From: Eledone cirrhosa
Lineage: Eukaryota
NCBI GenBank assembly: GCA_964016885.1
Contig: OZ024756.1
Location: forward strand, 19,220,001 to 19,284,000
Direction: 5' to 3'
Length of the DNA: 64,000 nt
Shown here: positions 2,660 to 64,000 of the stretch, in pieces
Layout of the letters: each line of letters begins with the position of its first letter
Numbering within the stretch: position 1 is the first letter of the stretch
Notes under the pieces: generated by a model
What the model was told of the DNA's origin: nothing
The model's input: only the letters and a program-made list of their open reading frames with translations
The model's database searches: none
Made by a program: the position numbers and the translations under genes

Positions 2660-2756
<97 letters not shown>

Positions 2757-2757
<1 letters not shown>

Positions 2758-12284: not shown

Positions 12285-12412
12285 ACAAGTCCCTGGTTCA
12301 ATCGGCGGTAACCACAGTAAGGTACTCAATATATTAGTAGAGTGTATACAACAAAATTTAATATAGAAATGGCTTCTACAAGACTAGAACTGTTTCATTT
12401 GAAGGAAATCAT
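12285..12412 (-). mobile_element. Truncated hammerhead element (family B)
   Basis: Minus strand: atga-tttccttcaaat-GAAA-cag..tg-TA-gaagcc, then ctctac..tattgagtacc..gtggttacc. (TA)n on both sides; homologous to 56365-56530. Confidence 0.7.
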
Positions 12413-12439
12413 ATATTTATATATATATATATATATAGA

Positions 12440-12640
12440 TAACAATGGAAGTGTGGTAAGGAACCAGGTGGACCATAACGCACCAGAGTACTCAATACTA
12501 TGGGTAGTAGAGTGGGTAATAGGATAATAGGAAAAGAGTCAGGACCCCGACGGCTGAGCTCTGGCCGTTTCGACAGCTAGTTCTGAACTAGCTGTCAAAA
12601 CGGCCGGAGCTCAACTCAGCTGTCTAGTCTCAACTCTTTA
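12440..12640. mobile_element. Fold-back element family A, copy 2
   Basis: Homologous to 2820-2930; inverted about gacagctagttc-t-gaactagctgtc (centre 12584). Confidence 0.7.
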
Positions 12641-12650
12641 TATAACATAT

Positions 12651-12838
12651 ATCATCATCATCATCATTTTACGTCCGCTTTTCCCTGCTTGCAAGGGTGG
12701 GACGGGTCTTATTCAGCACAGCATCTCTCCACTCGTCACGGTCCTTCGTCATCTCCACCGTGAGCTTCAATGATCTGAGGTCTGTTCTCACCACCACCGC
12801 CCATGTTTTTCGTGTTCTACCTCTACCACGTCTTCCTT
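12651..12838 (-). mobile_element. RTE LINE 3' end
   Basis: Minus strand reads ..RRGRGRTRKTWAVVVRTDLRSLKLTVEMTKDRDEWRDAVLNKTRP.. followed by a (GAT)n tail. Confidence 0.85.
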
Positions 12839-20079: not shown

Positions 20080-20640
20080 TATAGCAACGGAGGTGGGTGC
20101 TCAGAAAGTACAATAACTAGGGTAAGAACGGGATGGAAGAAGTTTAGGGAACTACTACCACTGCTAGCTGCAAAAGGCTTCTCCCTCAGAATGAAAGGCA
20201 GACTGTATGATGCGTGTATCCGAACAGCGATGTTGCATGGTAGTGAGACCTGGGCGCTGAAGGTGGAACACTTACGTAGATTAGAGAGAAACGAAGCCTG
20301 CATGCTCCGATGGATGTGTAACAGTAATATACGTGAACGACAAAGCATAAAGGAATTGAGAGAGAGACTGAGCATAAGAGGAATCAAATGCTGCGTGCAG
20401 GAGAGGCGGTTACGCTGGTATGGACATGTGATGCGTATGAAGGATGACAGCTGCATAAAAAGGTGCAGAGCACTAGAAGTTGATGGAAACCGCGGAGTGG
20501 GGAGACCCAAGATGACTTGGGATGAGGTGATAAAAGCCGACCTTACCCAACTACACCTCTCAAAGTCAATGACACACGACCGTGACTTCTGGCGTCACGC
20601 AGTAATACAGGGTACCCGACCTCCCATGGGTACATGCTGA
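20080..20640 (+). mobile_element. RTE-clade LINE ORF C-terminal fragment, open frame
   Basis: GWKKFRELLPLL..LYDACIRTAMLHGSETW..LERNEACMLRWMC..RRLRWYGHVMR..GRPKMTWDEVIKADL. Confidence 0.92.
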
Positions 20641-22139: not shown

Positions 22140-22772
22140 AATTGTTTCTACTTTTGGCACAAGGTCAGCAATTATCCAGTGCATTACTGGTACTTTATTT
22201 TATCGACCCCGTAAGGATGAAAGGCAAAGTCAACCTCGGCGGGATTTGAACTCAGATCGTAAAGGGACGTAACTATGCTGGAAAGCATGGCGTCCGACCC
22301 TCTACCGATACTGCCAATCCACCACATAATAATAATGATTTCTGATTTAGGCACAGAGCCAAAACTTTTGGGGCAAGGTGAAGTCAAATCAACCCCAGTG
22401 CATTACTGGTGCGTTATTTTATCGACCCTGTAAGGATGAAAGGTAAAGTTAACCTCAGCGGGATGTGAACTCGGGCAGTAAAGGGCCGGAACTCTAGACT
22501 GCAATGCATGGCATCCAACCCTCTAGCAATACTACCAATCCATTGCCCTTATAATAATGGTTTCTTATATAGGCACAAGGCCAGCAATTGTTTTTTGGGG
22601 GGGAGGGGATCGATTAAATCAACCCCAGTGCATGACTGGTACTTTATTTTATCGACCCTGTAAGGATGAAAGGCAAAGTTAACCTCGGCGGGATTTGAAC
22701 TCAGAACGTAAAGAGCCGTAACTATACGCCGGGAAGTATGTTGTTCGAAGCTCTACTGATTCTCTCAATCCG
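22140..22772 (-). mobile_element. Three tandem Meta-domain-like tRNA SINEs
   Basis: Repeated ggtactttattttatcgaccc..aaggatgaaaggcaaagt(t/c)aacctcggcgggatttgaactc (B-box on minus), separated by (AAT)n. Confidence 0.85.
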
Positions 22773-22994: not shown

Positions 22995-23868
22995 GATCAA
23001 CTTATTGAGTTTCTTGAAGTCATCATCCAGATCACTGATGGCGGCTCATGTTGTTTACATTGACTTTACTAAAGTTTTTAATTCTGTGCCACACAAAACT
23101 CTCTGCAATGGGTAAGATGATCTTTTTAACTGGTTGGAGTCTTTCATTCTCAGTCAAAAAGAGGTAGTCACGGTTCTAGGACGGCATTCTTCACCCTATG
23201 CGATGTCATCTGGTGTACCGCAAGGATCTGTTCTTGGTCCCCATTTGTTTATTGCATATATTAATGACATAGATGCCAACTTAAAGAATGCCACAGTACT
23301 GAAATATGTAGATGACATCAAGCTGTACCTTGAGATAAAAAGGACAGATCCTGAACACTATAGATCCTTCCTGCAATCAGGCCTGAACACAATGCAGCAA
23401 TGGATCGCAGACTGGCAACTCAAGTTGGCTGTGGACAAGTGTACCACCATGCATTTTGGGAGGAAAAACCCAACGTCCACATACTCCCTCCACAACACTA
23501 ATATCAAGTAGTCTTCTTGTGAACGTGACCAGCGATTTGCATTGGACAAAGCACATCTTTAAAATTGACAAGAAGGCTGAGAGTGTCTTGGCGTCAGCAA
23601 GACCTTTGTCAGCCACTCTCCAGCCATCTATTTAAAGCTGTATATAGCTATGGTGTGGTCACACTAAGAATTTGCATTATTAGTCTGGAACCCCGATCTT
23701 ACTCAGAACATTGACCTCCTGGAAAATATTCAGAGACGTGCAACCAAATGAATACCCTCCATCAAGCATCTACTATACTTCTTCCATGGGCATGGATACA
23801 ATGAAGCTCCAACATCTGGCAACTGACTTGGTAAACACCCACAAAATTATTAACCATCTTGCCAACAC
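22995..23868 (+). pseudogene. Decayed CR1/L2-group LINE reverse transcriptase fragment
   Basis: SGVPQGSVLGPHLFIAYINDID..KYVDDIKLY..WQLKLAVDKCTTMHFG; stops and frameshifts downstream (LENIQRRAT). Confidence 0.9.
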
Positions 23869-25821: not shown

Positions 25822-28800
25822 TATATTGGTACAATACAGACCTAGTATGGTACTATATAACTATATTGGTACAACACAGACCTAGTGTCATACTATATAA
25901 CTATATTGGTACAACACAGACCTAATGTCGTACTATATAACTATATTGGTACAACACAGACCTAATGTCGTACTATATAACTATATTGGTACAACACAGA
26001 CCTAGTGTCGTACTATATAACTATATTGGTACAACACAGACCTAATGTCGTACTATATAACTATATTGGTACAACACAGACCTAGTGTCGTACTATATAA
26101 CTATATTGGTACAACACAGACCTAGTATGGTACTATATAACTATATTGGTACAACACAGACCTAGTATGGTACTATATAACTATATTGGTACAACACAGA
26201 CCTAGTGTCGTACTATATAACTATATTGGTACGACACAGACCTAATGTCGTACTATATAACTATATTGGTACAACACAGACCTAATGTCGTACTATATAA
26301 CTATATTGGTACAACACAGACCTAGTATGGTACTATATAACTATATTGGTACAACACAGACCTAGTGTACTATATAACTATATTGGTACAACACAGACCT
26401 AGTATGGTACTATATAACTATATTGGTACAACACAGACCTAGTATGGTACTATATAACTATATTGGTACAACACAGACCTAGTATGGTACTATATAACTA
26501 TATTGGTACAAGACAGACCTAATGTCGTACTATATAACTATATTGGTACAACACAGACCTAGTGTCGTACTATATAACTATATTGGTACAACACAGACCT
26601 AGTGTCGTACTATATAACTATATTGGTACAACACAGACCTAGTGTCGTACTATATAACTATATTGGTACAACACAGACCCAGTGTCATACTATATAACTA
26701 TATTGGTACAACACAGACCTAGTATGGTACTATATAACTATATTGGTACAACACAGACCTAGTGTCGTACTATATAACTATATTGGTACAACACAGACCT
26801 AGTATGGTACTATATAACTATATTGGTACAACACAGACCTAGTGTCGTTCTATATAACTATATTGGTACAACACAGACCTAATGTCGTACTATATAACTA
26901 TATTGGTACAACACAGACCTAATGTCGTACTATATAACTATATTGGTACAACACAGACCTAGTGTACTATATAACTATATTGGTACAACACAGACCTAGT
27001 GTCGTACTATATAACTATATTGGTACAACACAGACCTAATGTCGTACTATATAACTATATTGGTACAACACAGACCTAATATCGTACTATATAACTATAT
27101 TGGTACAACACAGACCTAATGTCATACTATATAACTATATTGGTACAACACAGACCTAGTGTCATACTATATAACTATATTGGTACAACACAGACCTAGT
27201 GTCGTACTATATAACTATATTGGTACAACACAGACCTAGTGTCGTACTATATAACTATATTGGTACAACACAGACCTAATGTCGTACTATATAACTATAT
27301 TGGTACAACACAGACCTAATGTCGTACTATATAACTATATTGGTACAACACAGACCTAGTGTCATACTATATAACTATATTGGTACAACACAGACCTAGT
27401 GTCTTACTATATAACTATATTGGTACAACACAGACCTAGTATGGTACTATATAACTATATTGGTACAACACAGACCTAGTGTCGTTCTATATAACTATAT
27501 TGGTACAACACAGACCTAGTGTCATACTATATAACTATATTGGTACAACACAGACCTAGTGTCGTTCTATATAACTATATTGGTACAACACAGACCTAGT
27601 GTCGTACTATATAACTATATTGGTACAACACAGACCTAGTATGGTACTATATAACTATATTGGTACAACACAGACCTAGTGTACTATATAACTATATTGG
27701 TACAACACAGACCTAATGTCGTACTATATAACTATATTGGTACAACACAGACCTAGTGTCGTACTATATAACTATATTGGTACAACACAGACCTCGTGTC
27801 GTACTATATAACTTTATTGGTACAACACAGACCTAGTGTCATACTATATAACTATATTGGTACAACACAGACCTAGTATGGTACTATATAACTATATTGG
27901 TACAACACAGACCTAGTGTCGTACTATATAACTATATTGGTACAACACAGACCTAGTATGGTACTATATAACTATATTGGTACAACACAGACCTAGTGTC
28001 GTACTATATAACTATATTGGTACAACACAGACCTAATGTCGTACTATATAACTATATTGGTACAACACAGACCTAATGTCGTACTATATAACTATATTGG
28101 TACAACACAGACCTAGTGTACTATATAACTATATTGGTACAACACAGACCTAATGTCGTACTATATAACTATATTGGTACAACACAGACCTAATGTCATA
28201 CTATATAACTATATTGGTACAACACAGACCTAGTGTACTATATAACTATATTGGTACAACACAGACCTAGTGTCATACTATATAACTATATTGGTACAAC
28301 ACAGACCTAGTGTCGTACTATATAACTATATTGGTACAACACAGACCTAGTGTCGTACTATATAACTATATTGGTACAACACAGACCTAATGTCGTACTA
28401 TATAACTATATTGGTACAACACAGTCCTAGTGTCGTACTATATAACTATATTGGTACAACACAGACCTAATGTCGTACTATATAACTATATTGGTACAAC
28501 ACAGACCTAGTGTCGTACTATATAACTATATTGGTACAACACAGACCTAATGTCGTACTATATAACTATATTGGTACAACACAGACCTAGTGTCGTACTA
28601 TATAACTATATTGGTGCAACACAGACCTAGTGTCGTACTATATAACTATATTGGTACAACACAGACCTAGTGTCATACTATATAACTATATTGGTACAAC
28701 ACAGACCTAGTGTCGTACTATATAACTATATTGGTACAACACAGACCTAATGTCGTACTATATAACTATATTGGTACAACACAGACCTAATATCGTACTA

Positions 28801-31800
28801 TATAACTATATTGGTACAACACAGACCTAATGTCGTACTATATAACTATATTGGTACAACACAGACCTAGTGTCATACTATATAACTATATTGGTACAAC
28901 ATAGACCTAATGTCGTACTATATAACTATATTGGTACAACACAGACCTAGTGTCATACTATATAACTATATTGGTACAACACAGACCTAGTGTCGTTCTA
29001 TATAACTATATTGGTACAACACAGACCTAATGTCGTACTATATAACTATATTGGTACAAAACAGACCTAATGTCGTACTATATAACTATATTGGTACAAC
29101 ACAGACCTAGTGTCGTTCTATATAACTATATTGGTACAACATAGACCTAATGTCGTACTATATAACTATATTGGTACAACACAGACCTAGTGTCGTACTA
29201 TATAACTATATTGGTACAACACAGACCTAGTGTCTTACTATATAACTATATTGGTACAACACAGACCTAGTATGGTACTATATAACTATATTGGTACAAC
29301 ACAGACCTAGTGTCGTTCTATATAACTATATTGGTACAACACAGACCTAATGTCGTACTATATAACTATATTGGTACAACACAGACCTAATGTCGTACTA
29401 TATAACTATATTGGTACAACACAGACCTAGTGTCGTTCTATATAACTATATTGGTACAACACAGACCTAGTGTACTATATAACTATATTGGTACAACACA
29501 GACCTAATGTCGTACTATATAACTATATTGGTACAACACAGACCTAGTGTCGTTCTATATAACTATATTGGTACAACACAGACCTAATGTCGTACTATAT
29601 AACTATATTGGTACAACACAGACCTAGTGTCGTACTATATAACTATATTGGTACAACACAGATCTAATGTCGTACTATATAACTATATTGGTACAACACA
29701 GACCTAATGTCGTACTATATAACTATATTGGTACAACACAGACCTAGTGTCATACTATATAACTATATTGGTACAACACAGACCTAGTGTCGTACTATAT
29801 AACTATATTGGTACAACACAGACCTAGTGTCATACTATATAACTATATTGGTACAACACAGACCTAGTATGGTACTATATAACTATATTGGTACAACACA
29901 GACCTAGTGTCGTACTATATAACTATATTGGTACAACACAGACCTAGTATGGTACTATATAACTATATTGGTACAACACAGACCTAGTGTCGTACTATAT
30001 AACTATATTGGTACAACACAGACCTAATGTCGTACTATATAACTATATTGGTACAACACAGACCTAATGTCGTACTATATAACTATATTGGTACAACACA
30101 GACCTAGTGTACTATATAACTATATTGGTACAACACAGACCTAATGTCGTACTATATAACTATATTGGTACAACACAGACCTAATGTCATACTATATAAC
30201 TATATTGGTACAACACAGACCTAGTGTACTATATAACTATATTGGTACAACACAGACCTAGTGTCATACTATATAACTATATTGGTACAACACAGACCTA
30301 GTGTCGTACTATATAACTATATTGGTACAACACAGACCTAGTGTCGTACTATATAACTATATTGGTACAACACAGACCTAATGTCGTACTATATAACTAT
30401 ATTGGTACAACACAGACCTAGTGTCGTACTATATAACTATATTGGTACAACACAGACCTAATGTCGTACTATATAACTATATTGGTACAACACAGACCTA
30501 GTGTCGTACTATATAACTATATTGGTACAACACAGACCTAATGTCGTACTATATAACTATATTGGTACAACACAGACCTAATGTCGTACTATATAACTAT
30601 ATTGGTAGAACACAGACCTAGTGTCGTACTATATAACTATATTGGTAGAACACAGACCTAGTGTCGTACTATATAACTATATTGGTACAACACAGACCTA
30701 GTGTCATACTATATAACTATATTGGTACAACACAGACCTAGTGTCGTACTATATAACTATATTGGTACAACACAGACCTAGTGTCGTACTATATAACTAT
30801 ATTGGTACAAGACAGACCTAGTGTCATACTATATAACTATATTGGTACAACACAGACCTAGTGTCGTACTATATAACTATATTGGTACAACACAGACCTA
30901 ATGTCGTACTATATAACTATATTGGTACAACACAGACCTAATGTCGTACTATATAACTATATTGGTACAACACAGACCTAATGTCGTACTATATAACTAT
31001 ATTGGTACAACACAGACCTAATGTCGTACTATATAACTATATTGGTACAAGACAGACCTAGTGTCATACTATATAACTATATTGGTACAACACAGACCTA
31101 GTGTCGTACTATATAACTATATTGGTACAACACAGACCTAGTGTCATACTATATAACTATATTGGTACAACACAGAACAAGTGTCGTTCTATATAACTAT
31201 ATTGGTACAACACAGACCTAATGTCGTACTATATAACTATATTGGTACAAAACAGACCTAATGTCGTACTATATAACTATATTGGTACAACACAGACCTA
31301 GTGTCGTTCTATATAACTATATTGGTACAACACAGACCTAGTGTACTATATAACTATATTGGTACAACACAGACCTAATGTCGTACTATATAACTATATT
31401 GGTACAACACAGACCTAGTGTCGTTCTATATAACTATATTGGTACAACACAGACCTAATGTCGTACTATATAACTATATTGGTACAACACAGACCTAGTG
31501 TCGTTCTATATAACTATATTGGTACAACACAGACCTAATGTCGTACTATATAACTATATTGGTACAACACAGACCTAGTGTCGTACGATATAACTATATT
31601 GGTACAACACAGACCTAATGTCGTACTATATAACTATATTGGTACAACACAGACCTAATGTCGTACTATATAACTATATTGGTACAACACAGACCTAATG
31701 TCGTACTATATAACTATATTGGTACAACACAGACCTAATCTCGTACTATATAACTATATTGGTACAACACAGACCTAATGTCGTACTATATAACTATATT

Positions 31801-34640
31801 GGTACAACACAGACCTAGTGTCGTACTATATAACTATATTGGTACAACACAGACCTAATGTCGTACTATATAACTATATTGGTACAACACAGACCTAGTG
31901 TCGTACTATATAACTATATTGGTACAACACAGACCTAGTATGGTAATATATAACTATATTGGTACAACACAGACCTAGTGTACTATATAACTATATTGGT
32001 ACAACACAGACCTAATGTCGTACTATATAACTATATTGGTACAACACAGACCTAATGTCGTACTATATAACTATATTGGTACAACACAGACCTAGTGTCG
32101 TACTATATAACTATATTGGTACAACACAGACCTAGTGTCGTACTATATAACTATATTGGTACAACACAGACCTAGTGTCGTACTATATAACTATATTGGT
32201 ACAACACAGACCTAATCTTCTATATAACTATATTGGTACAACACAGACCTAGTGTCATACTATATAACTATATTGGTACAACACAGACCTAGTGTCGTAC
32301 TATATAACTATATTGGTACAACACAGACCTAATGTCGTACTATATAACTATATTGGTACAACAGAGACCTAATGTCGTACTATATAACTATATTGGTACA
32401 ACAAAGACCTAGTGTCGTACTATATAACTATATTGGTACAACACAGACCTAGTGTCGTACTATATAACTATATTGGTAGAACACAGACCTAGTGTCATAC
32501 TATATAACGATATCGGTAGAAAACATCAAACCTACTAGTGTAATATATAACTATATTGGTACAACACAGACCTAATGTCGTACTATATAACTATATTGGT
32601 ACAACACAGACCTAGTGTCGTACTATATAACTATATTGGTACAACACAGACCTAGTGTCATACTATATAACTATATTGGTAGAACACAGACCTAGTGTCA
32701 TACTATATAACGATATCGGTAGAAAACATCAAACCTACTAGTGTAATATATAACTATATTGGTACAACAAAGACCTAGTGTCGTACTATATAACTATATT
32801 GGTACAACACAGACCTAGTGTCGTACTATATAACTATATTGGTAGAACACAGACCTAGTGTCATACTATATAACGATATCGGTAGAAAACATCAAACCTA
32901 CTAGTGTAATATATAACTATATTGGTACAACACAGACCTAATGTCGTACTATATAACTATATTGGTACAACACAGACCTAGTGTCGTACTATATAACTAT
33001 ATTGGTACAACACAGACCTAGTGTCATACTATATAACTATATTGGTAGAACACAGACCTAGTGTCATACTATATAACGATATCGGTAGAAAACATCAAAC
33101 CTACTAGTGTAATATATAACTATATTGGTACAACACAGACCTAGTGTCATACTATATAACTATATTGGTAGAACACAGACCTAGTGTCATACTATATAAC
33201 GATATCGGTAGAAAACATCAAACCTACTAGTGTACTATATAACTATATTGGTACAAGACAGACCTAGTGTCGTACTATATAACTATATTGGTACAACACA
33301 GACCTAATGTCGTACTATATAACTATATTGGTACAACACAGACCTAGTGTCATACTATATAACTATATTGGTACAACACAGACCTAGTGTCTTACTATAT
33401 AACTATATTGGTACAACACAGACCTAGTGTCATACTATATAACTATATCGGTAGAAAACATCAAACCTACTAGTGTACTATATAACTATATTGGTACAAG
33501 ACAGACCTAGTGTCGTACTATATAACTATATTGGTACAACACAGACCTAGTGTACTATATAACTATATTGGTACAACACAGACCTAGTGTCGTACTATAT
33601 AACTATATTGGTACAACACAGACCTAGTATGGTACTATATAACTATATTGGTACAACACAGACCTAGTGTACTATATAACTATATTGGTACAACACAGAC
33701 CTAGTATGGTACTATATAACTATATTGGTACAACACAGACCTAGTGTCTTACTATATAACTATATTGGTACAACACAGACCTAGTGTCATACTATATAAC
33801 TATATCGGTAGAAAACATCAAACCTACTAGTGTACTATATAACTATATTGGTACAAGACAGACCTAGTGTCGTACTATATAACTATATTGGTACAACACA
33901 GACCTAGTGTACTATATAACTATATTGGTACAACACAGACCTAGTGTCGTACTATATAACTATATTGGTACAACACAGACGAGGTTAACTTTGCCTTTCA
34001 TCCTTACGAGGTCGATAAAATAAAGTACCAGTAATGCTCTGGGTAATTGCTGGCCTTGTGCCAAACGTAGAAACAATATAACTATATTGGTACAACACAG
34101 ACCTAGTGTACTATATAACTATATTGGTACAACACAGACCTAGTATGGTACTATATAACTATATTGGTACAACACAGACCTAGTGTACTATATAACTATA
34201 TTGGTACAACACAGACCTAGTATGGTACTATATAACTATATTGGTACAACACATCAAACCTAGTATGGTACTATATAACTATATTGGTACAACACAGCCC
34301 TAATGTTCTATATAACTATATTGGTACAACACAGACCTAGTATGGTACTATATAACTATATTGGTACAACACATCAAACCTAGTATGGTACTATATAACT
34401 ATATTAGTACAACACATCAAACCTAGTATGGTACTATATAACTATATTGGTACAATACATCAAACCTAGTATGGTACTATATAACTATATTGGTACATCA
34501 CATCAAACCTAGTGAGGTACTATATAACTATATTGGTACAATACATCAAACCTAGTATGGTACTATATAACAAAATTGGTACAACACATCAAACCTAGTG
34601 AGGTACTATATAACTATATTGGTACATCACATCTAACCTA
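25822..34640. repeat. 40-bp satellite, ~8.8 kb, about 220 copies
   Basis: Unit ctatattggtacaacacagacctagtgtcgtactatataa with recurrent variants; SINE fragment inserted at ~33979-34077. Confidence 0.98.
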
Positions 34641-43454: not shown

Positions 43455-43695
43455 GTGAAGGCGCATGGCTTAGTGGTTAAAGCATTGGGCTTGCAATCGA
43501 AAGGTTGTGAGTTCAATTCTCGGACCGGGTGATGTGTTGTTTCCTTGAGCAAGACACTTTATTTCAGCTGTAGAAATGAGTACCGGCCTGCCCGCCCAGC
43601 CAGTGGGATGGCGTTATCTTATGGCTAAAACAGCACGACGTGCTGTGACCAGCAGCGCCAATTGGCGCCCGACAGACTGGTCGATCAAGGTGATA
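43455..43695 (+). mobile_element. tRNA-derived SINE in a (TA)n tract
   Basis: tggcttagtggttaaagc (A box), gagttcaattctc (B box), ccttgagcaagacactttatttca. Confidence 0.85.
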
Positions 43696-46974: not shown

Positions 46975-47153
46975 AGGTAAAATTCCGTTATAACAAATAC
47001 CATTATATCAAATTTTTCAGTATAACGAATTTTTTTTTCAATCCCTTGCTACACGCTCGATGTGTTTCGGTCGATCTCGTTATAAAGAATTTTTCGTTAC
47101 AACGAATTTTTTTCATACCCCGTGAACTTTTCGTTGTAACGGAGTTTCACTGT
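46975..47153. mobile_element. Tigger-like MITE remnant
   Basis: aattccgttataac ... cgttgtaacggagtttcactg termini with internal gttataac repeats. Confidence 0.55.
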
Positions 47154-47169
47154 TTATATATATCAGGAT

Positions 47170-47312
47170 TTTACCACTTTTTAACTAGAAACACCATTAT
47201 TCAGCGGAGTACTCGATATTTGGGATAATAGAGTGACTATATGAAAGAGAGTCGGGGCCCGACAGCTGAGCTCTTGCCGTTTCGACAACTAATTCCAGAC
47301 TGATGATAAAAC
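47170..47312 (-). mobile_element. Family A element, copy 3
   Basis: Minus strand gtc-GAAA-cggc-aagagctca-gctg-TC-gggcccc; (TA)n flanks. Confidence 0.6.
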
Positions 47313-47329
47313 TATATATATATATATAT

Positions 47330-47443
47330 ATAAAATATTAAAAAAATAATGAATAAAACAATGAAACAGTTCCTTATATTAAACAAAAAAAGTTCATTAT
47401 TTAACGATCGTTTCTGGGATATATATGTGTTAGAATTGGCATG
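47330..47443 (-). mobile_element. Partial copy of the 11147 element
   Basis: Nearly identical to 11147-11260; same left end at (TA)n and (TA)n on the right. Confidence 0.85.
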
Positions 47444-48448
47444 TATATATATATATATATATATCAGTGCAGGACTTGCCTATAAGCTATAGCTTAGAGT
47501 GGGCTACACACCCTCAGGGTCCTTATTTTTTAAGATCTATTTATATTTTATCATTAGTTTTTATTCTTTAACGTTAAATCATCAAAATATATTTTTTATA
47601 CACACACAGATATAATATATGTATATATATAATTTATTTTTTATCATTTAACATTAATATAAAAAGTGTATAATTATTTTAAAAATATTTACCCTTCTCT
47701 GAAGGGCCTCAGCAGGTGAAAGCCTGCTTATATATATATATACACACACATACATACATAATACACACACACAATGATTATCATCGTTTTTCCATTGTGG
47801 CATAGGTTGGACAGAATGTTTTGAGGCAGTGTTTTACAGCCGGATACCCTTCACAACATCAACCCCTTTTTGTCGCCTCTTACGACGAAGTACCTATTCT
47901 AAAAACCGATATATATATATATATATATATAATGTGTGTGTGTGTGTGTGTGTGTGGTGGGGAGTGCTTCGCTTTAGGTATATAAAATGGCTGACAAAAT
48001 TAAACAATGGAATATGCACGTTTATTACAGCCTGCAAGCAATCTGTGATGAAGGAGCAGATCCGTATCGAAATACATTCACAAATAAATCATTCAAAAAG
48101 AGAAAAAAAATTTAATCACAAATAAATTCTTCAATTTACCAATAAAAAAATATTTTCAAAAGACGAAGATTTATAACGAAAAAACGGGTACCTTCCATTT
48201 TACTGTCTACATTTGGTATACTCAAAACAAAACATGTATGTATAGAGAGATAGATATATACATACATATATGTGTGTGTGTAACACGAGTAAATAAATAT
48301 ATATATGTGTGTGTGTGAACTATATATATATGTGTGTGAACTATATATATATATGTGTGAACTATATGTATATATATATATGTGTGTGTGTGTGTGAACT
48401 ATATGTATATATATATATATATGTGTGTGTGTATGTGTGAACTATATG

Positions 48449-48479
<31 letters not shown>

Positions 48480-48527
48480 ATGTGTGAACTATATATATGT
48501 GTGTATATATATATATATATGTGTGTG

Positions 48528-48576
<49 letters not shown>

Positions 48577-48839
48577 CATACACATATATATCTGTGTATG
48601 AATGTATGTATATGGTTCATCCGTCATTTAAGCACCTGACATCTGAGCAAGGCCAACTTTCGGCACGGAATCGAAACGATAACCTCAAAAATAGACAATC
48701 TGACAATTTTACATGTGAACTAGAGTCCCGTGTCTATAAATATCACAACCACATATGGGAAGGAAGTAGGTTTCGTTGTATCGATGTCTGTATGTGATGG
48801 TGTGTATATGGTAGTGTGAATGTTATTGGCTGTGTGTAA

Positions 48840-48886
<47 letters not shown>

Positions 48887-49147
48887 AGAAATACGAAATA
48901 GTCAATAGCTGCAGCTAATATTGAATAAATAGGAAACTCCATGAGTGTATGATTGCCTTAACTTGGTCTCTATCAAACATCTTAACAACTGCATTATTAC
49001 TATCATCATATGACTCAAGTCGTCATATATACATACATACATACATACATACATACATACATACAGACAGACATTATAAGCTCTGTAACCTACACTGAGC
49101 ACTCTTTTTTCCTGGACCTTTCCGACGGATTTACTTCATTTACACAC

Positions 49148-49211
<64 letters not shown>

Positions 49212-49311
49212 ATATATATATGTGTGTGTGTGTAAATGTGTAAATAAACAATATGTTGATTTAAAACTTCACTGCTCACAAGTGTTTTTTAAGCTTCATA
49301 TCATGTCTCCC

Positions 49312-49379
49312 TATTTTATCTGATGAGAACGCAGATATCATCCCATGATATTTGTTTTTGAAATGCGCATAATAAAATA
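49312..49379 (+). ncRNA. Type I hammerhead ribozyme
   Basis: tattttat, CTGATGA, gaacgcagatatca-tccca-tgatatttgttttt, GAAA, tgcgca, TA, ataaaata: 8-bp stem I, 14-position stem II (one mismatch, several G-U), palindromic stem III. Confidence 0.88.
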
Positions 49380-49541
49380 CTTAGAACTCTTTTAACCATC
49401 TTTTGATCTTATATTATATATATATAAACAAGTGCATAGATGCAAAATTATATCTCCGGTTGCGGTTGATGGCTGAGAGAAAAGAGTACTCAATACCGAA
49501 GTAGAGTTTAAATATTCATTTTATTAAGGCTAAATAGTGAG

Positions 49542-49591
49542 TCTTGTTACTCTGGAGTTTCGCCTGTTTATCACGGGGTCATCAGACAAGA
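49542..49591 (-). ncRNA. Type I hammerhead ribozyme
   Basis: Minus strand: tcttgt, CTGATGA, ccccgtgataaacaggc (imperfect stem II), GAAA, ctc-ca-gag, TA, acaaga. Enclosed by inverted repeat 49533-49561/49590-49618. Confidence 0.8.
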
Positions 49592-49631
49592 AACTCCAGA
49601 GTAACAAGACTCACTATTCATAAAATGATGA

Positions 49632-49669
<38 letters not shown>

Positions 49670-49907
49670 GATAACAATTATAAACTATCCGGGGAGCTAG
49701 GAAGATTAAAGGATTAAGGGGTACATAAACAATAATAATAAATTAACGGATTATATGTATATTCATCAATGACAACTGTAAAGAAGGGAAAAGTGTATAT
49801 ATATGTGTGTGTGTATAGTAAATATGTCTATACTCTACAAATGTATTGAGTACCTTTTTTAACTGTGGTTACCCCACACACACATACGACATAACTCGGG
49901 AATCTAC

Positions 49908-49950
<43 letters not shown>

Positions 49951-49996
49951 TAAAAACAACAGAAGGTCGGTATTATATATATATATATATATATAT

Positions 49997-50177
49997 AATT
50001 GTTTCTAGTTTTTGGCACAAGGCCAGCAATTACCCAGTGTATTACTGGTACTTTATTTTATCGACCCCGTAAGGATGAAAGGCAAAGTTAACCTCGGCGG
50101 GATTTGAACTCAGAATGGCAAGAGCCGTAACTCTATGCGTCAAAGCATGGCGTCCGACCCTCTACCGATACTGCCAA
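49997..50177 (-). mobile_element. Meta-domain-like SINE in (TA)n
   Basis: Consensus match to the 22140 and 23920 copies. Confidence 0.85.
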
Positions 50178-50403
50178 TATATATATATAATACATTCAAG
50201 GTATATTCATTGAACGCTGTTCCTTATAAATGTGTATCCTGCATAGATTACATATATTTATAATTAAAGAAATAGGGGCAGGTAGGCAAGCAGGTGTGTA
50301 AATCAAGGTGGGGGAGCAAGTGTGAATAGCACTCCGTTTGTGAGATGGATGGCGTTAAAAAACGTGAGACAAGAAACATTGTTGCTTGACAGCAAGGATG
50401 GTG

Positions 50404-50453
<50 letters not shown>

Positions 50454-50538
50454 ACACATATATACGTTGTATACATATATATATATGTACACACATGTAC
50501 GTTGTATACATATATATATGTACACACATGTACGTTGT

Positions 50539-50576
<38 letters not shown>

Positions 50577-51117
50577 CCACATATACTTGTTCTATACATA
50601 TATATATATATTGACACACACACAAATATACTTTCACTTTCAAAACAGTGGTACATTAGAAAATAAAGCCCGCTTTTCATTAATGACAGCAGTAAAGAAA
50701 TATAGTAAAAGGCAAAACTGTATGTGTGTTTATATCTATGTAAATATATATATCTATATCTGTGTGTATATATACATATATATATATGTATGTATGTATG
50801 TGTGTGTATGTGTATACAAATATATATGTGTGTGTGTGCGTGCGCGCATGTGTTTATATCTATGTACGTATATATATATATATATATATATCTGTATATG
50901 TATAACACACTTATAAAACACATATATATATGTGTGTGTGTGTGTCTATGTATGTATGAATATATTTATATTAAAAGCCTTACGAACACATTCAGTCTCC
51001 CGAGTAGGAATTTCCTTCCGTAGTGAATATGTTGTGAGGACGTTTCCAGCAATACACCGATCATCTTCTTATTAAAACTATTGATTTCCTTAGATTCTAT
51101 ATAACAGCTCCCCAACC

Positions 51118-51149
<32 letters not shown>

Positions 51150-51387
51150 ATATTAAATAAATGGAAACTATATTTATAAAACCATATTTATTCTATTAAT
51201 ATATTTCAAGGGTACCAAAAACTTTGGTACGCTTTCATCAGATAAAATACAAAGTGTTTTATAAATTTTATCAGTTGAATTAATAAAACACTCTTTGTAT
51301 AAAATTTATCAGTTGAATTTTGTATATATGTATATATATATGAATTTTGTATATATGTATGAATTTTGTATACATATGAATTTTGTA

Positions 51388-55086: not shown

Positions 55087-55555
55087 GGTTAGCTTTGCCT
55101 TTCATCCTTACGGGGTCGATAAAATAAAGTACCAGTAATGTACTGGGGCTCGATTTAATCGACTTTCCCCTACCCTTTAAATTGCTGGCCTTTCTACTAT
55201 AATTCTAGGTTAGCTTTGCCTTTCATCCTTACGGGGTCGTTGAAATACAGTACCAGTAATGTACTGGGGTCGATTTAATCGACTTTCCCCTACCTTTTAA
55301 ATTGCTGGCCTTTCTACTATAATTCTAGGTTAGCTTTGCCTTTCATCCTTACGGGGTCGTTGAAATACAGTACCAGTAATGTACTGGGTCGATTTAATCG
55401 ACTTTCCCCTACCCTTTAAATTGCTGGCCTTTCTACTATAATTCTAGGTTAGCTTTGCCTTTCATCCTTACGGGGTCGGTGAAATACAGTACCAGTAATG
55501 CACTGGGGTCGATTTAACCAACTTTCCTCTTTCCTTTAAATTGCTGACCTTTCTA
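55087..55555 (+). repeat. Four tandem 121-bp copies of a SINE 3' segment
   Basis: ggttagctttgcctttcatccttacggggtcg... at 55087, 55208, ~55328 and ~55447. Confidence 0.9.
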
Positions 55556-56375
55556 TTATAATTTTTATTAATACTATTATATTAAAGGTGGAAAACTGGG
55601 AGAGGGCACTTGCCCTGGTGGTCAGGGTCACTGTGGCCTTTTAATGGGCTTTCTCCACAAATGTCCTTCGGAAGTCTCCCCCCCTATTGGGGAATTTTTC
55701 ATTGTTATTTTTATTACATCCTCTGTTTTTTTTACACGCAGAAATGTCCATTTGTACCGTCCTGTGTTGACCTGTACTGTCCTTAATGTCTTCTTTATGT
55801 AAACCCTTGTGGTTAATAAAGAAAGCATTAATACTATTATATATTATTATTATTTGTAATACACTGGGTAATTGCTGGCCTTGTGCCAAAAGTAGAAACA
55901 ATTATTATTATTTATTGGATTTTAGTGTAAACCCCCACTGTCCCTGTATTTTTGTATTGTCCCCTATATGTGGGCCCTAGTGGCCAATAAAGAAATCATT
56001 ATTCTTATTATTATTATCTTTCCGTTCAAATCCTGCCGAGGTTAACTTTGCCTTTCATCCTTACAAGGTCGATAAAATAAAGTACCAGTAATGCACTGGG
56101 ATAATTTCTGGCCTTGTGCCAAAAGTAGAAACAATTATTATCTTTCCATGGTCTTCCTCTAAGACGGTAAACATGGGCAGAGGTGGTGAAAGCTGAACTC
56201 AGATCACTAAAGTTCACAGAAGAGATGACAAAGGACTGCGACAAATGGAGAGATGATTGGCTGAAGCAGATCCGTTTACAAGCAGGGAAAAGTGGACTAT
56301 GATGATGATAATTGCAAGCGCTATGTTCTAAACCACTAAGCTGTACGCCTTCAAACTATATATAAATATAGAAAT

Positions 56376-56434: not shown

Positions 56435-56559
56435 CTTTCCTGATAATGTAGAAGCCCTTTGTATATTAAATCTTCATTGTTCTCATTCTACTTATGTATT
56501 GAGTACTTTTTTTGCTGTGGTAACCCCCAATTCTATTTGGAGGTAGGTAGGCGTAAAAG

Positions 56560-56852
56560 CCAAACTCGCTAACTTCAATTCGGTTTTCGTGCCAACCCTT
56601 CCCTATGGCCATGAATCTTGGGTAACGACCAAAAGAATACAAGCGGCTGAAATGGGATTCCTCTGAAGGGACTTCGGAGTAACGTTACTCAATAAAGTGC
56701 GTACCTCAGAGATCAGAGAATCAATCAAGGTAAAGCCACTACTTCTCCTAATTGAGAGATCACAGCTCCGATACTATGGACATGTGGTTAAAATGTCTCA
56801 GGGGAGGATTGCTGGACAGATTTTAGAGGTAAAGCCAGCCAGCAAGAGACCC
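56560..56852 (+). mobile_element. Decayed RTE LINE fragment
   Basis: ..PTLPYGHESW..RIQAAEMGFL*..SEIRESIKVKPLLLLIERSQLRYYGHVVKM.. Confidence 0.8.
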
Positions 56853-56853
56853 A

Positions 56854-57205
56854 ATCCCCACAGATGACAATATACCTTCCAAGGAAATAGAGAAAATCTC
56901 CAAATATAAAGATCTAGAGATAGAAATAACTCGAATGTGGAAAATGAAAACAGAAACAATACCTATAATAATAGGTGCTCTAGGAATGATTAAAAAAAAA
57001 CACAAAAACAAATACATAGCCAAACCCCCAGGACTTGCAAATATTTACAGCATACAAAAGATAGCACTACTAGGTACTGCACACATGTTACAAAAAGTAC
57101 TATCAATACAATAGAAACAACATCAGTAAAAACTACAAAGCACATACCCAAGGTGTACAGAGCTGCGCTCGGTAAAGCAGTTATGATACACAATAAAATA
57201 ATAAT
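56854..57205 (+). mobile_element. R4/Dong-like (RLE) non-LTR retrotransposon 3' fragment
   Basis: IPTDDNIPSKEIEKISKYKDLEIEITRMWKMKTETIPIIIGALGMIKK...QKIALLGTAHMLQKVLSIQ*, typical of restriction-like endonuclease C-termini; TAA-rich tail. Confidence 0.8.
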
Positions 57206-57219
57206 GAAAATGGTAATAA

Positions 57220-57980
57220 TAATTGTTTCTACTTTAGGCAAAAGGCCAGCAATTACTTACCCCAGTGTATTACTGGTGCTTTATTTTATTGACCCCGTAA
57301 GGATGAAAGGTAAAGTTAACCTCAGCAGGAAATAGTAATAATTGTTTCTACTTAAGGCACAAGGCCAGCAATTACCCAGTGTATTACTGGTACTTTATTT
57401 TATTGACCCCGTAAGGATGAAAGGCAAAGTCAACCTCGGCGGGATTTGAACTCAGATCGTAAAGGGACGTAACTATGCTGCAAAGCATGGCGTCCAACCC
57501 TCTACCGATACTGCCAATCCAAACAATAATTGTTTCTACTTTTGGCACAAGGCCAGCAATTACCCAGTGCATTACTGGTACATTATTTTATCCCCCCCCC
57601 CCCCGTAAGGATGAATGGCAAAGTTAACATCGGTGGGATTTGAACTGAGAACGTAAAGGGCCATAACACTATGCTGCAAATCATGGCGTCTGAAGCTCTA
57701 CCGATACTGCCATCCACCGCCATAATGATAATAATTGTTTATACTTTTGGCACAAGGCCAGCAATTACCCAGTACATTACTGGTACTTTATTTTATCGAC
57801 CCCGTAAGGATGAAAGGCAAAGTTAACCTCGCGTAATAATAACAATAATAATTGTTTCTACTTTTGGCACAAGGCCAGCAATAACCTAGTGTATTACTGG
57901 TACTTTATTTTATCGACCCCCCCCCTCCCCGTAAGGATGAATGGTAAAGTTAACCTCGGTGGGATTTGAACTCAGAATAA
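57220..57980 (-). mobile_element. Cluster of ~5 Meta-domain-like SINE copies and fragments
   Basis: Repeated aattgtttctac..ggcacaaggccagcaattacccag..ggtactttattttat..aaggatgaaaggcaaag. Confidence 0.85.
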
Positions 57981-58210
57981 TAATATAGTTATGTTTCATT
58001 AGCACCAAAATAAAACTACATGAAACTAATTAACTCTTGAAAGTCATCTTTTTTTCTTTTTTTGTTTTGCTTTTTTTTACTAACGTCTGTTCCTTTGTTG
58101 CTGCTCTTTTATTTTGTTTTTAGTTTGTTCGTTTTTTATCAATAATAGCCAGAAAGTCTATTATTGATGAAACAAAACAACAACAACAGTAAAGGAAGAC
58201 CAAGGAAGAC

Positions 58211-61200
58211 CTGGATGGAAGTGGTCAGAGTTGACCTCCTGGATGGAAGTGGTGAGAGCTGACCTCCTGGATGGAAGCGGTGAAAGTTGACCTCCTGGAT
58301 GGAAGTGGTCAGAGCTGACCTCCTGGATGGAAGTAGTGAGAGATGACCTTCTGGATGGAAGTGGTGATGGTTGATCTCCTGGATGGAAGTGGTGAGAGCT
58401 GACCTCCTGGATGGAAGTGGTGAGAGGTGACCTCCTGGATGGAAGTAGTCAGAGTTGACCTCCTGGATGGAAGTGGTGAGAGCTGACCTGGATGGAAGCG
58501 GTGAGAGCTGACCTCCTGGATGGAAGTGGTGAGAGCTGACCTCCTGGATGGAAGCGGTGAAAGTTGACCTCCTGGATGGAAGTGGTGATGGTTGATCTCC
58601 TGGATGGAAGTGGTGAGAGCTGACCTCCTGGATGGAAGTGGTGAGAGCTGACCTCCTGGATGGAAGTGGTCAGAGTTGACCTCCTGGATGGAAGTGGTGA
58701 GAGCTGACCTCCTGGATGGAAGTGGTCAGAGTTGACCTCCTGGATGGAAGTGGTGAGAGCTGACCTGGATGGAAGTGGTGATGGTTGATCTCCTGGCTGG
58801 AAGTGGTGAGAGCTGACCTCCTGGATGGAAGTGGTGAGAGCTGACCTGGATGGAAGCGGTGAGAGCTGACCTCCTGGATGGAAGTGGTGAGAGGTGACCT
58901 CCTGGATGGAAGTAGTCAGAGTTGACCTCCTGGATGGAAGTGGTGAGAGCTGACCTGGATGGAAGCGGTGAGAGCTGACCTCCTGGATGGAAGTGGTGAG
59001 AGCTGACCTTCTGGATGGAAGTGGTCAGAGTTGACCTCCTGGATGGAAGTGGTGAGAGCTGACCTCCTGGATGGAAGTGGTGAGAGCTGACCTCCTGGAT
59101 GGAAGTGGTGAGAGATGACCTCCTGGATGGAAGTGGTCAGAGTTGACCTCCTGGATGGAAGTGGTGAGAGCTGACCTCCTGGATGGAAGTGGTGAGAGAT
59201 GACCTCCTGGATGGAAGTGGTGAGAGATGACCTCCTGGATGGAAGTGGTGAGAGGTGACCTCCTGGATGGAAGTGGTGAGAGCTGATCTCCTGGATGGAA
59301 GTGGTGAGAGATGACCTCCTGGATAGAAGTGGTGAGAGCTGACCTCCTGGATGGAAGTGGTGAGAGATGACCTCCTGGATGGAAGTAGTGAGAGATGACC
59401 TCCTGGATAGAAGTGGTGAGAGCTGACCTCCTGGATGGAAGTGGTGAGAGATGACCTCCTGGATGGAAGTAGTGAGAGATGACCTCCTGGATGGAAGTGG
59501 TGAGAGTTGACCTCCTGGATTGAAGTGGTGAGAGCTGACCTCCTGGATGGAAGTGGTGAGAGCTGATCTCCTGGATGGAAGTGGTGAGAGCTGATCTCCT
59601 GGATGGAAGTGGTGAGAGTCGATCTCCTGGATGGAAGTGGTGATGGTTGATCTCCTGGATGGAAGTGGTGAGAGTTGACCTCCTGGATGGAAGTGGTGAG
59701 AGCTGATCTCCTGGATGGAAGTGGTGAGAGCTGATCTCCTGGATGGAAGTGGTGAGAGTCGATCTCCTGGATGGAAGTGGTGATGGTTGATCTCCTGGAT
59801 GGAAGTGGTGAGAGATGACCTCCTGGATGGAAGCGGTGAGAGCTGATCTCCTGGATGGAAGTGGTGAGAGATGACCTCCTGGATGGAAGTGGTGAGAGAT
59901 GACCTCCTGGATGGAAGTGGTGAGAGATGACCTCCTGGATGGAAGCGGTGAGAGATGACCTCCTGGATGGAAGCGGTGAGAGATGACCTCCTGGATGGAA
60001 GTGGTGAGAGATAACCTCCTGGATGGAAGCGGTGAGAGATGACCTCCTGGATGGAAGTGATGAGAGATGACCTCCTGGATGGAAGTGGTGAGAGATGACC
60101 TCCTGGATGGAAGCGGTGAGAGCTGATCTCCTGGATGGAAGTGGTGAGAGATGACCTCCTGGATGGAAGTGGTGAGAGATGACCTCCTGGATGGAAGTGG
60201 TGAGAGATGACCTCCTGGATGGAAGTGGTGAGAGATAACCTCCTGGATGGAAGCGGTGAGAGATGACCTCCTGGATGGAAGCGGTGAGAGATGATCTCCT
60301 GGATGGAAGTGGTGAGAGATAACCTCCTGGATGGAAGCGGTGAGAGATGACCTCCTGGATGGAAGCGGTGAGAGATGATCTCCTGGATGGAAGTGGTGAG
60401 AGATGACCTCCTGGATGGAAGTGGTGAGAGATGACCTCCTGGATGGAAGTGGTGAGAGATGACCTCCTGGATGGAAGCGGTGAGAGATGACCTCCTGGAT
60501 GGAAGTGGTGAGAGATAACCTCCTGGATGGAAGCGGTGAGAGCTGATCTCCTGGATGGAAGTGGTGAGAGATGACCTCCTGGATGGAAGTGGTGAGAGAT
60601 GACCTCCTGGATGGAAGTGGTGAGAGATGACCTCCTGGATGGAAGCGGTGAGAGATGACCTCCTGGATGGAAGTGGTGAGAGATAACCTCCTGGATGGAA
60701 GCGGTGAGAGATGACCTCCTGGATGGAAGCGGTGAGAGATGATCTCCTGGATGGAAGTGGTGAGAGATGACCTCCTGGATGGAAGTGGTGAGAGATAACC
60801 TCCTGGATGGAAGCGGTGAGAGATGACCTCCTGGATGGAAGTGATGAGAGATGACCTCCTGGATGGAAGTGGTGAGAGATGACCTCCTGGATGGAAGTGG
60901 TGAGAGATGACCTCCTGGATGGAAGCGGTGAGAGATGACCTCCTGGATGGAAGTGGTGAGAGATGACCTCCTGGATGGAAGTGATGAGAGATGACCTCCT
61001 GGATGGAAGTGGTGAGAGATGACCTCCTGGATGGAAGTGGTGAGAGCTGATCTCCTGGATGGAAGTGGTGAGAGATGACCTCCTGGATGGAAGTGGTGAG
61101 AGATGACCTCCTGGATGGAAGCGGTGAGAGATGACCTCCTGGATGGAAGCGGTGAGAGCTGATCTCCTGGATGGAAGTGGTGAGAGATGACCTCCTGGAT

Positions 61201-62588
61201 GGAAGTGGTGAGAGATGACCTCCTGGATGGAAGCGGTGAGAGATGACCTCCTGGATGGAAGCGGTGAGAGCTGATCTCCTGGATGGAAGTGATGAGAGAT
61301 GACCTCCTGGATGGAAGTGGTGAGAGATGACCTCCTGGATGGAAGTGATGAGAGATGACCTCCTGGATGGAAGTGGTGAGAGATGACCTCCTGGATGGAA
61401 GCGGTGAGAGCTGATCTCCTGGATGGAAGTGATGAGAGATGACCTCCTGGATCGAAGTGGTGAGAGATGACCTCCTGGATGGAAGTGGTGAGAGATGACC
61501 TCCTGGATGGAAGCGGTGAGAGCTGATCTCCTGGATCGAAGTGGTGAGAGATGACCTCCTGGATGGAAGTGGTGAGAGATGACCTCCTGGATGGAAGTGG
61601 TGAGAGATGACCTCCTGGATGGAAGTGGTGAGAGATGACCTCCTGGATGGAAGTGGTGAGAGATGACCTCCTGGATGGAAGTGGTGAGAGATGACCTCCT
61701 GGATGGAAGTGGTGAGAGATGACCTCCTGGATGGAAGTGATGAGAGATGACCTCCTGGATGGAAGTGGTGAGAGATGACCTCCTGGATGGAAGCAGTGAG
61801 AGCTGATCTCCTGGATGGAAGTGGTGAGAGATGACCTCCTGGATGGAAGTGGTGAGAGATGACCTCCTGGATGGAAGTGGTGAGAGATAACCTCCTGGAT
61901 GGAAGTGGTGAGAGATGACCTCCTGGATGGAAGTGGTGAGAGATGACCTCCTGGATGGAAGTGGTGAGAGATGACCTCCTGGATGGAAGTGGTGAGAGAT
62001 GACCTCCTGGATGGAAGTGATGAGAGATGACCTCCTGGATGGAAGTGGTGAGAGATGACCTCCTGGATGGAAGCAGTGAGAGCTGATCTCCTGGATGGAA
62101 GTGGTGAGAGATGACCTCCTGGATGGAAGTGGTGAGAGATGACCTCCTGGATGGAAGCGGTGAGAGATGACCTCCTGGATGGAAGTGGTGAGAGATGACC
62201 TCCTGGATGGAAGTGGTGAGAGATGACCTCCTGGATGGAAGCGGTGAGAGATGACCTCCTGGATGGAAGTGGTGAGAGATGACCTCCTGGATGGAAGTGG
62301 TGAAAGTTGACCTCCTGGATGGAAGCGGTGAGAGCCGACCTCCTGGATTGAAGTGGTGAGAGATGACCTCCTGGATGGAAGTGGTCAGAGCTGATCTCCT
62401 GGATGGAAGTGGTGAGAGATGACCTCCTGGATTGAAGTGGTGAGAGATGACCTCCTGGATGGAAGCGGTGAGAGATGACCTCCTGGATGGAAGTGGTGAG
62501 AGCTGACCTCCTGGATGGAAGTGGTGAGAGTTTACTTCCTGAATTGAAGTGGTGAGAGATGACCTCCTGGATGGATATGGTGAGAGAC
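58211..62588 (+). repeat. 28-bp satellite, ~4.4 kb, about 155 copies, derived from an RTE ORF
   Basis: Unit ggatggaagtggtgagagatgacctcct; preceded by ggaagaccaaggaagacc (GRPRKT). Confidence 0.97.
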
Positions 62589-63130: not shown

Positions 63131-63493
63131 AGATAATGATTAAGAGAATGCCCAGTCCACCAGCAGAAACATTTCAGCCAGCAACCACTGACCATTGACC
63201 TAAACAAATGATAACAACCTCAATTCTGGATTTATTGATATTTATATATAACAGAATATATAGATTTTTCGTTTCTGAATTTGTTTAGCAAGATTCTTTA
63301 TCTGAAATCGTGTGTTGAAACTGATATTGTTATACTTTGGGAGGGTCATGTTGCCAATAAGAAACACACGCACCAGTTGCTTTCACTTCAATTTATTATA
63401 TATTTATAAATTTATAAATTTACAAATCTACAAATTTATAAATTTCTGGTTGGTTGGTTGGTTGGTTCCACAACCAGATAGTTGTTTATATAT

Positions 63494-63538
63494 AGTCATA
63501 GTCCTTTCGTCACACACTCTGTGACCTCTTCAGTGACT
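63494..63538 (-). ncRNA. Minimal type I hammerhead ribozyme, mirror copy
   Basis: Reverse complement of 63814-63858. Confidence 0.7.
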
Positions 63539-63813
63539 GGGGATTCCTTTCTTTGTTTCTGTGCCTTTCCTTTCTTCTGTCCTACGCCATTTTGTTTCTG
63601 TGTGTGTGTTGTGTGCTCAGTTTGCGCATGCGCCACATCCGGGTGTCTGTGTGTGTTTGTGTTCATTTATCTATTTGTTTATTTATTTATTTACATGTTG
63701 TTGTAAATAAAGGATGTGGCGCATGCGCAAACTGAGCACACAACACACACACAGAAACAAAATGGCGTAGGACAGAAGAAATGAAAGGCACAGAAACAAA
63801 GAAAGGAATCCCC

Positions 63814-63858
63814 AGTCACTGAAGAGGTCACAGAGTGTGTGACGAAAGGACTATGACT
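63814..63858 (+). ncRNA. Minimal type I hammerhead ribozyme
   Basis: agtca, CTGAAGA, g-gtcac-agagtgt-gtgac, GAAA, ggac, TA, tgact (one unpaired G at the base of stem II; very short stem III). Confidence 0.7.
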
Positions 63859-64000
63859 ATATATAAACAACTATCTGGTTGTGGAACCAACCAACCAACC
63901 AGAAATTTATAAATTTGTAGATTTGTAAATTTATAAATTTATAAATATATAATAAATTGAAGTGAAAGCAACTGGTGCGTGTGTTTCTTATTGGCAACAT

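Follow-up and report, generated by a model that had tools for sequence, protein, structure and literature searches.

In the 64,000-nt stretch of Eledone cirrhosa DNA analysed here (assembly GCA_964016885.1, contig OZ024756.1, positions 19,220,001 to 19,284,000; hereafter the window), the segment at 49312-49379 of the plus strand is, judged by its sequence, a type I hammerhead motif in an end of the Penelope-like element (PLE) type, and site-specific self-cleavage is predicted for it. The segment probably represents a hammerhead from the 3' pseudo-LTR end of a PLE family that inserts into (TA)n, and the locus would be a single, 5'-truncated and mutated copy devoid of an ORF, probably inert. Counted for this reading were the intact core and helices, the complete lack of matches in 300 shuffled sequences, the sharp edges of the repeat that carries the motif, and its (TA)n flanks.

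The motif is built of helix I, CTGATGA, a 33-nt helix II hairpin, GAAA, TGCGCA, TA and the second strand of helix I, and the type I core CUGANGA / GAAA / UH is present in this order. Its parts are the following.

49312-49319, plus strand: 5' strand of helix I, TATTTTAT, pairing with ATAAAATA at 49372-49379 (8 of 8 pairs Watson-Crick)
49320-49326, plus strand: catalytic core C3-A9, CTGATGA, with N7 at 49324
49327-49359, plus strand: helix II, 14 pairs in 15 positions, loop CCC
49360-49363, plus strand: core G12-A13-A14-A15.1, GAAA
49363-49370, plus strand: 8-nt palindrome ATGCGCAT, from A15.1 to U16.1 (49370), with TGCGCA inside it at 49364-49369; helix III between two copies
49371, plus strand: A17, within an AUA triplet; cleavage is predicted 3' of this position
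49372-49379, plus strand: 3' strand of helix I, ATAAAATA, 8/8 Watson-Crick with TATTTTAT
49380-49384, plus strand: possible distal helix I strand, which in family-majority copies would pair with 49301-49305, with a 6-nt bulge in between, and is broken at two of five positions in the window copy (pairing judged by eye, weak)

The first-pass annotation had described all core nucleotides as present, a perfect 8-bp stem I, a long stem II and a cut after the UA at 49370-49371, and all of this agrees with the register given above. Its stem III, TGCGCA, is indeed self-complementary, but the palindrome is longer than proposed, comprising 8 nt. The designation “textbook” could not be maintained. Helix II has G·U at 10.1-11.1 and a C·U mismatch at pair 4, three of its 14 pairs are G·U, and its loop in the window copy measures 3 nt. 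Rfam gave no hammerhead match at 49312-49379, either at the gathering score or at E<=10, and at E<=10 it matched just the neighbouring hammerhead on the minus strand (21.3 bits, compared to the gathering score of 48.5). Using G10.1-C11.1, a 4-bp helix II, a 6-bp helix I with contact between loops 1 and 2, and the Rfam gathering score as the yardstick of canonical type I, assignment of the motif to this class was rejected because of the G·U pair in place of G10.1-C11.1, the 15-position helix II and the missing Rfam match.

A descriptor composed of the core, helix I >=4, helix II >=4 and a helix III that is either short or palindromic matched the window only once, at 49312-49379, compared to 0 matches in 300 block-wise dinucleotide shuffles. 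The folding energy of the motif by itself does not reach significance (z -1.47, with equally good folds in 13 of 200 shuffles). This modest z value and the lack of an Rfam match speak in favour of a chance match in AT-rich low-complexity DNA, an explanation rendered extremely improbable by the empty shuffles, by the structure-respecting variants of a multi-copy family presented below, and by a relative at 51249-51189 which is built to the same plan but with its own helix II sequence. A relaxed descriptor disclosed five hammerheads in the window, in addition to this relative.

51189-51249, minus strand: decayed relative with the same 15-nt helix I plus core and a 12-position helix II of different sequence

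The relative has A-U at 10.1-11.1, a pyrimidine mismatch at pair 4 and a non-palindromic helix III, with the register of helix II set by eye and by folds. At 51189-51335 (minus strand) it is accompanied by an upstream duplication and an inverted piece.

In the folding model, helix III has a pair probability of 0.00 in the monomer and 0.88-1.00 between two strands, and is thus predicted to exist in the dimer only. The 68-nt monomer folds with helix I at 0.48-0.72 and helix II at 0.63-1.00, while helix I drops to 0.04 in a context of 271 nt. The self-duplex of ATGCGCAT amounts to -10.5 kcal/mol, and the two-strand minimum-energy fold is a domain-swapped double hammerhead. In the two-strand ensemble both helices I form between strands at 0.45-0.68 and A17 is unpaired at 0.99, with pairs 1-3 of helix II at only about 0.2. 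The energy gain of dimerisation (-10.9 kcal/mol) was equalled by 23 of 200 shuffles, and a modelled head-to-tail tandem of the 176-nt copy gave 0.03-0.26 for helix I and 0.84-0.97 for helix III. The model is consistent with a need for the dimer and points to a weak ribozyme; in the former respect it agrees with the initial proposal of a PLE-type hammerhead that needs a partner. This is not a surprise, since a palindromic helix III and cleavage as a dimer are already described traits of metazoan PLE hammerheads (PMC4209133, PMC6765202). No tandem or other same-strand partner was found near the motif within the window, and the copy is most likely an inert fossil. A heterodimer with the neighbouring hammerhead was considered and rejected because the neighbour lies on the opposite strand and has a different helix III.

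Minimal type I hammerheads of metazoan PLEs are reportedly treated by Lunse et al. 2016, named alongside Cervera and de la Pena 2014. The motif shares with those described in the latter work (PMC4209133) the type I topology, the intact core, a palindromic helix III that implies dimer cleavage, a long helix II, dispersal as single copies in large families, and AU-rich flanks; its 15.2-16.2 region is palindromic, as specified there. It differs from them in the absence of a nucleotide between 9 and 10.1, in G·U or A-U instead of G10.1-C11.1, in the size of helix II (15 positions, compared to 7-8 bp reported in Schistosoma) and of helix I (8 bp, compared to 4-5 reported for PLE hammerheads), and in the 8-nt palindrome. 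Among the conserved traits of PLE hammerheads, PMC4209133 names G10.1-C11.1 and an additional base following A9, traits that some published PLE hammerheads lack as well (table in PMC8557442).

To assess the abundance of the sequence, records from 4 of 12 related sequencing runs were aligned to 49235-49625 at 80% likeness. By depth, two separate repeats are seen in this interval, at about 49251-49426 and about 49464-49592, the first of which includes the motif.

49251-49426, plus strand: copy of a high-copy dispersed repeat defined by depth edges and loose ends, putatively the 5'-truncated 3' end of a PLE (part of the pseudo-LTR)
49409-49426, plus strand: TA-rich tract, according to loose ends the usual 3' end of copies; some copies extend into a bulged tail hairpin, which the window copy lacks

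Depth is close to zero (0-24) at 49235-49248, high from 49249-49262 and near background past 49430, and within the repeat it is greater toward the 3' end. In run X1, contig depth summed over the repeat is 157,000-1,826,000, compared to 24 immediately upstream, a measure that does not equal copy number; in run X10, about 1,100 reads cross the motif. Of all X10 reads aligned to 49235-49625, 95% continue into unlike sequence. Loose ends accumulate before 49251 (433 X10 reads and 33 X1 contigs), where homology of the repeat to the window ends. Records leaving the window exactly at this position share in part an upstream consensus (agreement 0.55-0.65), and the window copy therefore looks 5'-truncated. 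Behind 49426, loose ends consist mostly of (TA)n (87 X1 contigs, 395 X10 reads). The family comprises at least hundreds of copies; with uniform RAD coverage and a genome of 2-5 Gb the estimate would be roughly 1,200-3,000, which is only an order of magnitude. Organism A has the family in abundance, organism C contains it, and organism B nearly lacks it. The segment had initially been described as unique, and the depth over the motif contradicts this. Framing of the locus as a textbook, unique and stand-alone ribozyme was consequently abandoned: it is a diverged copy of an abundant repeat, with a non-canonical helix II base and neither a tandem partner nor an ORF.

Variation in the family respects the ribozyme structure. 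The counts refer to 40 listed out of 143 variant rows, which reflect related subfamilies and not independent events. Eleven of the 40 fall in 49312-49379, distributed as one at N7, six in helix II, three in loop II and one in helix III, while helix I and the invariant core bases have none among the rows listed. The only core variant among them is T>C at N7 (197/1096 X10 reads). All six listed helix II variants retain pairing through a swap between Watson-Crick and G·U (about 0.016 if 50:50). One of these positions, 49327, is A in 677/1088 X10 reads (62%), giving these reads A-U where the window copy has G·U at 10.1-11.1. An insertion of 3 nt in loop II is present in 534/935 X10 reads. The helix III variant (49365 G>T), which breaks the palindrome, was seen in X10 only, in what is apparently one RAD pile. 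Along 49327-49350, five of the six common helix II variants are A/G opposite U; they could be a footprint of A-to-I editing on element RNA or the result of selection for pairing, the two being indistinguishable here.

The window copy itself appears somewhat decayed, because it has lost majority bases that could extend helix I (by eye, weak). The family majority differs from it at 49381 (A in 2372/2589 X10 reads, 92%) and 49383 (G in 2508/2592, 97%), and more than 100 X1 contigs depart from it at these single positions. The same comparison is relevant for the idea of a host-domesticated, locus-specific ribozyme which cleaves a host transcript. In its favour, the window copy retains an intact core, an intact helix I and the full palindrome, and its helix II differences from the common variants keep pairing; nevertheless, the locus is one among very many copies, has lost the family letters at 49381/49383, is situated among microsatellites and decayed elements, and has a helix III that is absent in the monomer with no same-strand partner nearby, all of which makes domestication very improbable.

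No PLE ORF could be linked to the copy, which counts against the reading as a PLE end; Pfam gave no match in 6 frames tested around 46977-51187 and 63482-63732. Across 10 frames of the window, the single Pfam match was a fragment of RVT_1 at 23116-23508, far from the motif. Exact-pattern scans for an ORF-bearing parent gave 0 matches in each of the metagenome contigs, viral contigs and prokaryote genomes. The repeat family was not found reported in the literature and supplements searched, Repbase, Dfam and subscription papers, which may contain it, being outside this search; one match to sequence terms in the supplement searches is a chance one, in a coding region.

The very high abundance and the lack of a link to any ORF would also fit a short non-autonomous PLE derivative, i.e. 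a mini-element resembling a retrozyme, which would have a fixed unit of its own and be mobilised in trans, perhaps via circular RNA produced by dimeric self-cleavage, of which the locus would be a dispersed partial monomer. Retrozymes of animals have been characterised as non-autonomous derivatives of PLEs (bioRxiv 10.64898/2026.07.22.740005), and the family resembles animal non-LTR retrozymes (PMC7229834 and the same preprint) in being non-coding, AT-rich, high-copy and type I, with a weak helix III. In addition, reads that leave the window exactly at 49251 with a partly shared upstream consensus indicate a unit longer than the window copy. We nevertheless consider this explanation unlikely. 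Instead of the head-to-tail repeats of 170-400 nt known for non-LTR retrozymes, the window copy is single and not in tandem, no same-strand end-to-start joint was present among the 15 of 88 joints listed, and the consensus of upstream loose ends is unlike the 3' end. Helix sizes are also non-canonical, with 15 positions in helix II, while retrozyme hammerheads in PMC7229834 are mostly canonical in this respect.

The second repeat detected by depth lies within a further element end of the PLE type.

49449-49618, minus strand: second, convergent element end belonging to another family, with a hammerhead at 49591-49542 (A17 at 49548), an inverted repeat and a tail hairpin at 49506-49486

The first-pass annotation had mentioned an unrelated hammerhead about 160 bp away on the other strand. 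The distance (162 nt), the strand and the difference in sequence are correct, but the neighbour is not unrelated in kind: it is a different family with the same PLE-type element end. A perfect 29-bp inverted repeat (49533-49561/49590-49618) represents the duplicated 3' half of its hammerhead, and the resulting hairpin of -56 kcal/mol would, according to the model, sequester its ribozyme. Helix III of the neighbour is ACTC..GAGT, as in published Hydra hammerheads (PMC8557442). The tail hairpin is located 41 nt after its cut site, and copies end either at 49512, without the tail, or at 49464, with the tail. This second family is abundant in organism B.

Two classes of 3' end, with or without a tail, occur in both families, with thin support in the 49251-49426 family. 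Some records of the latter continue behind 49422-49424 into a hairpin of the form CTC-stem-loop-stem-T(A/T)-GAG, 51 nt past the cut site. They include 1191 X10 reads, apparently one RAD pile derived from a copy with the broken palindrome, and four X6 contigs; the extension could instead be the tail of a neighbouring element. In the window, hairpins of the form CTC-stem-loop-stem-TT-GAG with changing stems are found at 49506-49486 (minus), 49833-49853 (plus), 42001 (minus), 12512 (minus) and 2882 (minus), and looser matches at 12322-12340 (minus) and 56488-56506 (plus). The hairpin descriptor, which was composed after seeing these sequences, gave five matches in the window compared to a shuffle mean of 0.085. 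Several of the window hairpins sit downstream of hammerhead halves.

Inspection by eye of six new Hydra consensus ends (File S7 of PMC8557442) revealed two that match the hairpin, one that matches partly, one without a match and two that end earlier. An equivalent hairpin follows the cut after 44 nt in Hydra-2_Amil and after 39 nt in Hydra-2_Ajap, in both behind a TA-rich tract. The partial match is 48 nt past the cut in Hydra-1_Crog, Hydra-1_Amil has none, and the ends of Hydra-1_Obim and Hydra-1_Ajap reach no further than the TA tract. A bulged hairpin at element ends is a candidate for a signal of reverse transcription start or for a tail signal. No description of it was found in the literature searched, from which Repbase and subscription papers were outside. 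As a tentative and on balance doubtful extension, the tail hairpin might be conserved in structure, with changing stems, across TA-targeting PLEs of coral, sea cucumber, copepod and this genome, and the reverse transcriptase (RT) might bind and start there internally, which would explain the optional tail. The same tentative proposal would make the family a PLE-derived element of very high abundance, apparently absent from catalogues, whose hammerhead belongs to an atypical subtype with an 8-nt palindrome and a helix II of 15 positions that A-U or G·U closes.

Hydra PLEs are known to target (TA)n, and Hydra-1_Obim comes from Octopus bimaculoides (Craig et al. 2021, PMC8557442). According to this source, the family shares with the Hydra clade targeting of (TA)n, a hammerhead about 40-50 nt ahead of a TA-rich 3' end, the bulged hairpin beyond the TA tract in the proportion of consensus ends given above, and the base of helix II, where non-G-C pairs are common in the Hydra table. 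In contrast, its helix III is AT..AT, where 26/26 rows of the table have AC..GT (File S2; this is our reading of the table, which does not state the feature as defining), and its helix II is much longer than the 3-7 bp of Hydra. Six motifs of 10-14 nt taken from this region had 0 matches in the PMC8557442 supplement. Membership in the Hydra clade was not assigned, because helix III differs from all 26 table rows and there is no ORF in which to look for the protein features of the clade (RWK, DKT and CxCX5C, with CCHH absent).

The family is also comparable with the Poseidon element PAc of Anolis (Frangieh et al. 2024, PMC11167929), in which some copies likewise have an optional 3' tail, targets are AT-rich, and the hammerhead is upstream of a 3' stem-loop. 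There, the optional tail is tied to two internal start sites of reverse transcription, and the hammerhead, which depended on the element protein, was not required for insertion in vitro. PAc differs in clade and sequence. Inverted 5'-truncated pieces, like the optional tail a trait of PLEs, are seen as inverted repeats at the neighbour and at 63533/63819.

On the basis of these comparisons, the following course of events can be proposed. Drawing on the PLE literature, the source element would be transcribed as a tandem or partial-tandem RNA, in which two hammerheads would pair via ATGCGCAT and swap helix I strands. The resulting double hammerhead, computed as a fold, is predicted to cut 3' of A17; cleavage may be slow and assisted by the element protein, by analogy with the anole PLE. 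An RT/GIY-YIG protein would then nick AT-rich DNA and begin reverse transcription internally, at either of two positions on the RNA that lie about 50 and about 90 nt beyond the ribozyme; the resulting copies would finish at the TA tract or bear the extra tail. Both kinds of end are present in reads, while their link to start sites and the second distance follow the analogy with PMC11167929. Incomplete reverse transcription would leave short 3' pieces such as 49251-49426.

The locus by itself matters little, as each animal genome is known to carry thousands of hammerheads in PLE ends. It is one mutated copy of a common scattered repeat, most likely a remnant PLE end, a setting already known for hammerheads, and is ordinary in kind. 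In the Octopus vulgaris genome, PLEs make up 6.83% and belong to 190 families (PMC13282606 supplement). The family nevertheless lends itself to testing what PLE hammerheads do, a question raised by the protein requirement of the anole hammerhead and by its dispensability for insertion in vitro, and the strong 8-nt palindrome of the family suits a clean dimer assay. It can equally serve for the RNA feature that sets the internal start of reverse transcription, with the shared tail hairpin as a concrete candidate. The hairpin is the lead most worth following, and the only one not found in print.

Other repeats were noticed in the window. Two identical type I hammerheads in inverted orientation, with cores at 63533 (minus) and 63819 (plus), are both located in a long inverted duplication at 63360-64000, centred near 63676, which looks like a young inverted PLE-type insertion. 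More hammerheads or hammerhead 3' halves, with long helix III hairpins, are found at 56427-56378 (minus), 12322-12700 and 2858-3050, beside tail hairpins and inverted repeats. LINE-like protein remnants are located at 20047-20637, 23116-23508 and 56833-57111, all on the plus strand; the first and the last have what we take to be an RTE-like and an R4-like look, respectively. A tRNA-like match at 43466-43523 (plus, 29.8 bits) is probably the head of a SINE. A recurrent SINE-like repeat, in places forming short tandems, is found at 22176-22725, 50005-50180, 55087-55563 and 57217-57770. In its microsatellites and SINEs the window seems to resemble octopus DNA. Long minisatellites extend over 25822-34631 (220 units of 40 nt) and 58210-62587 (157 units of 28 nt).
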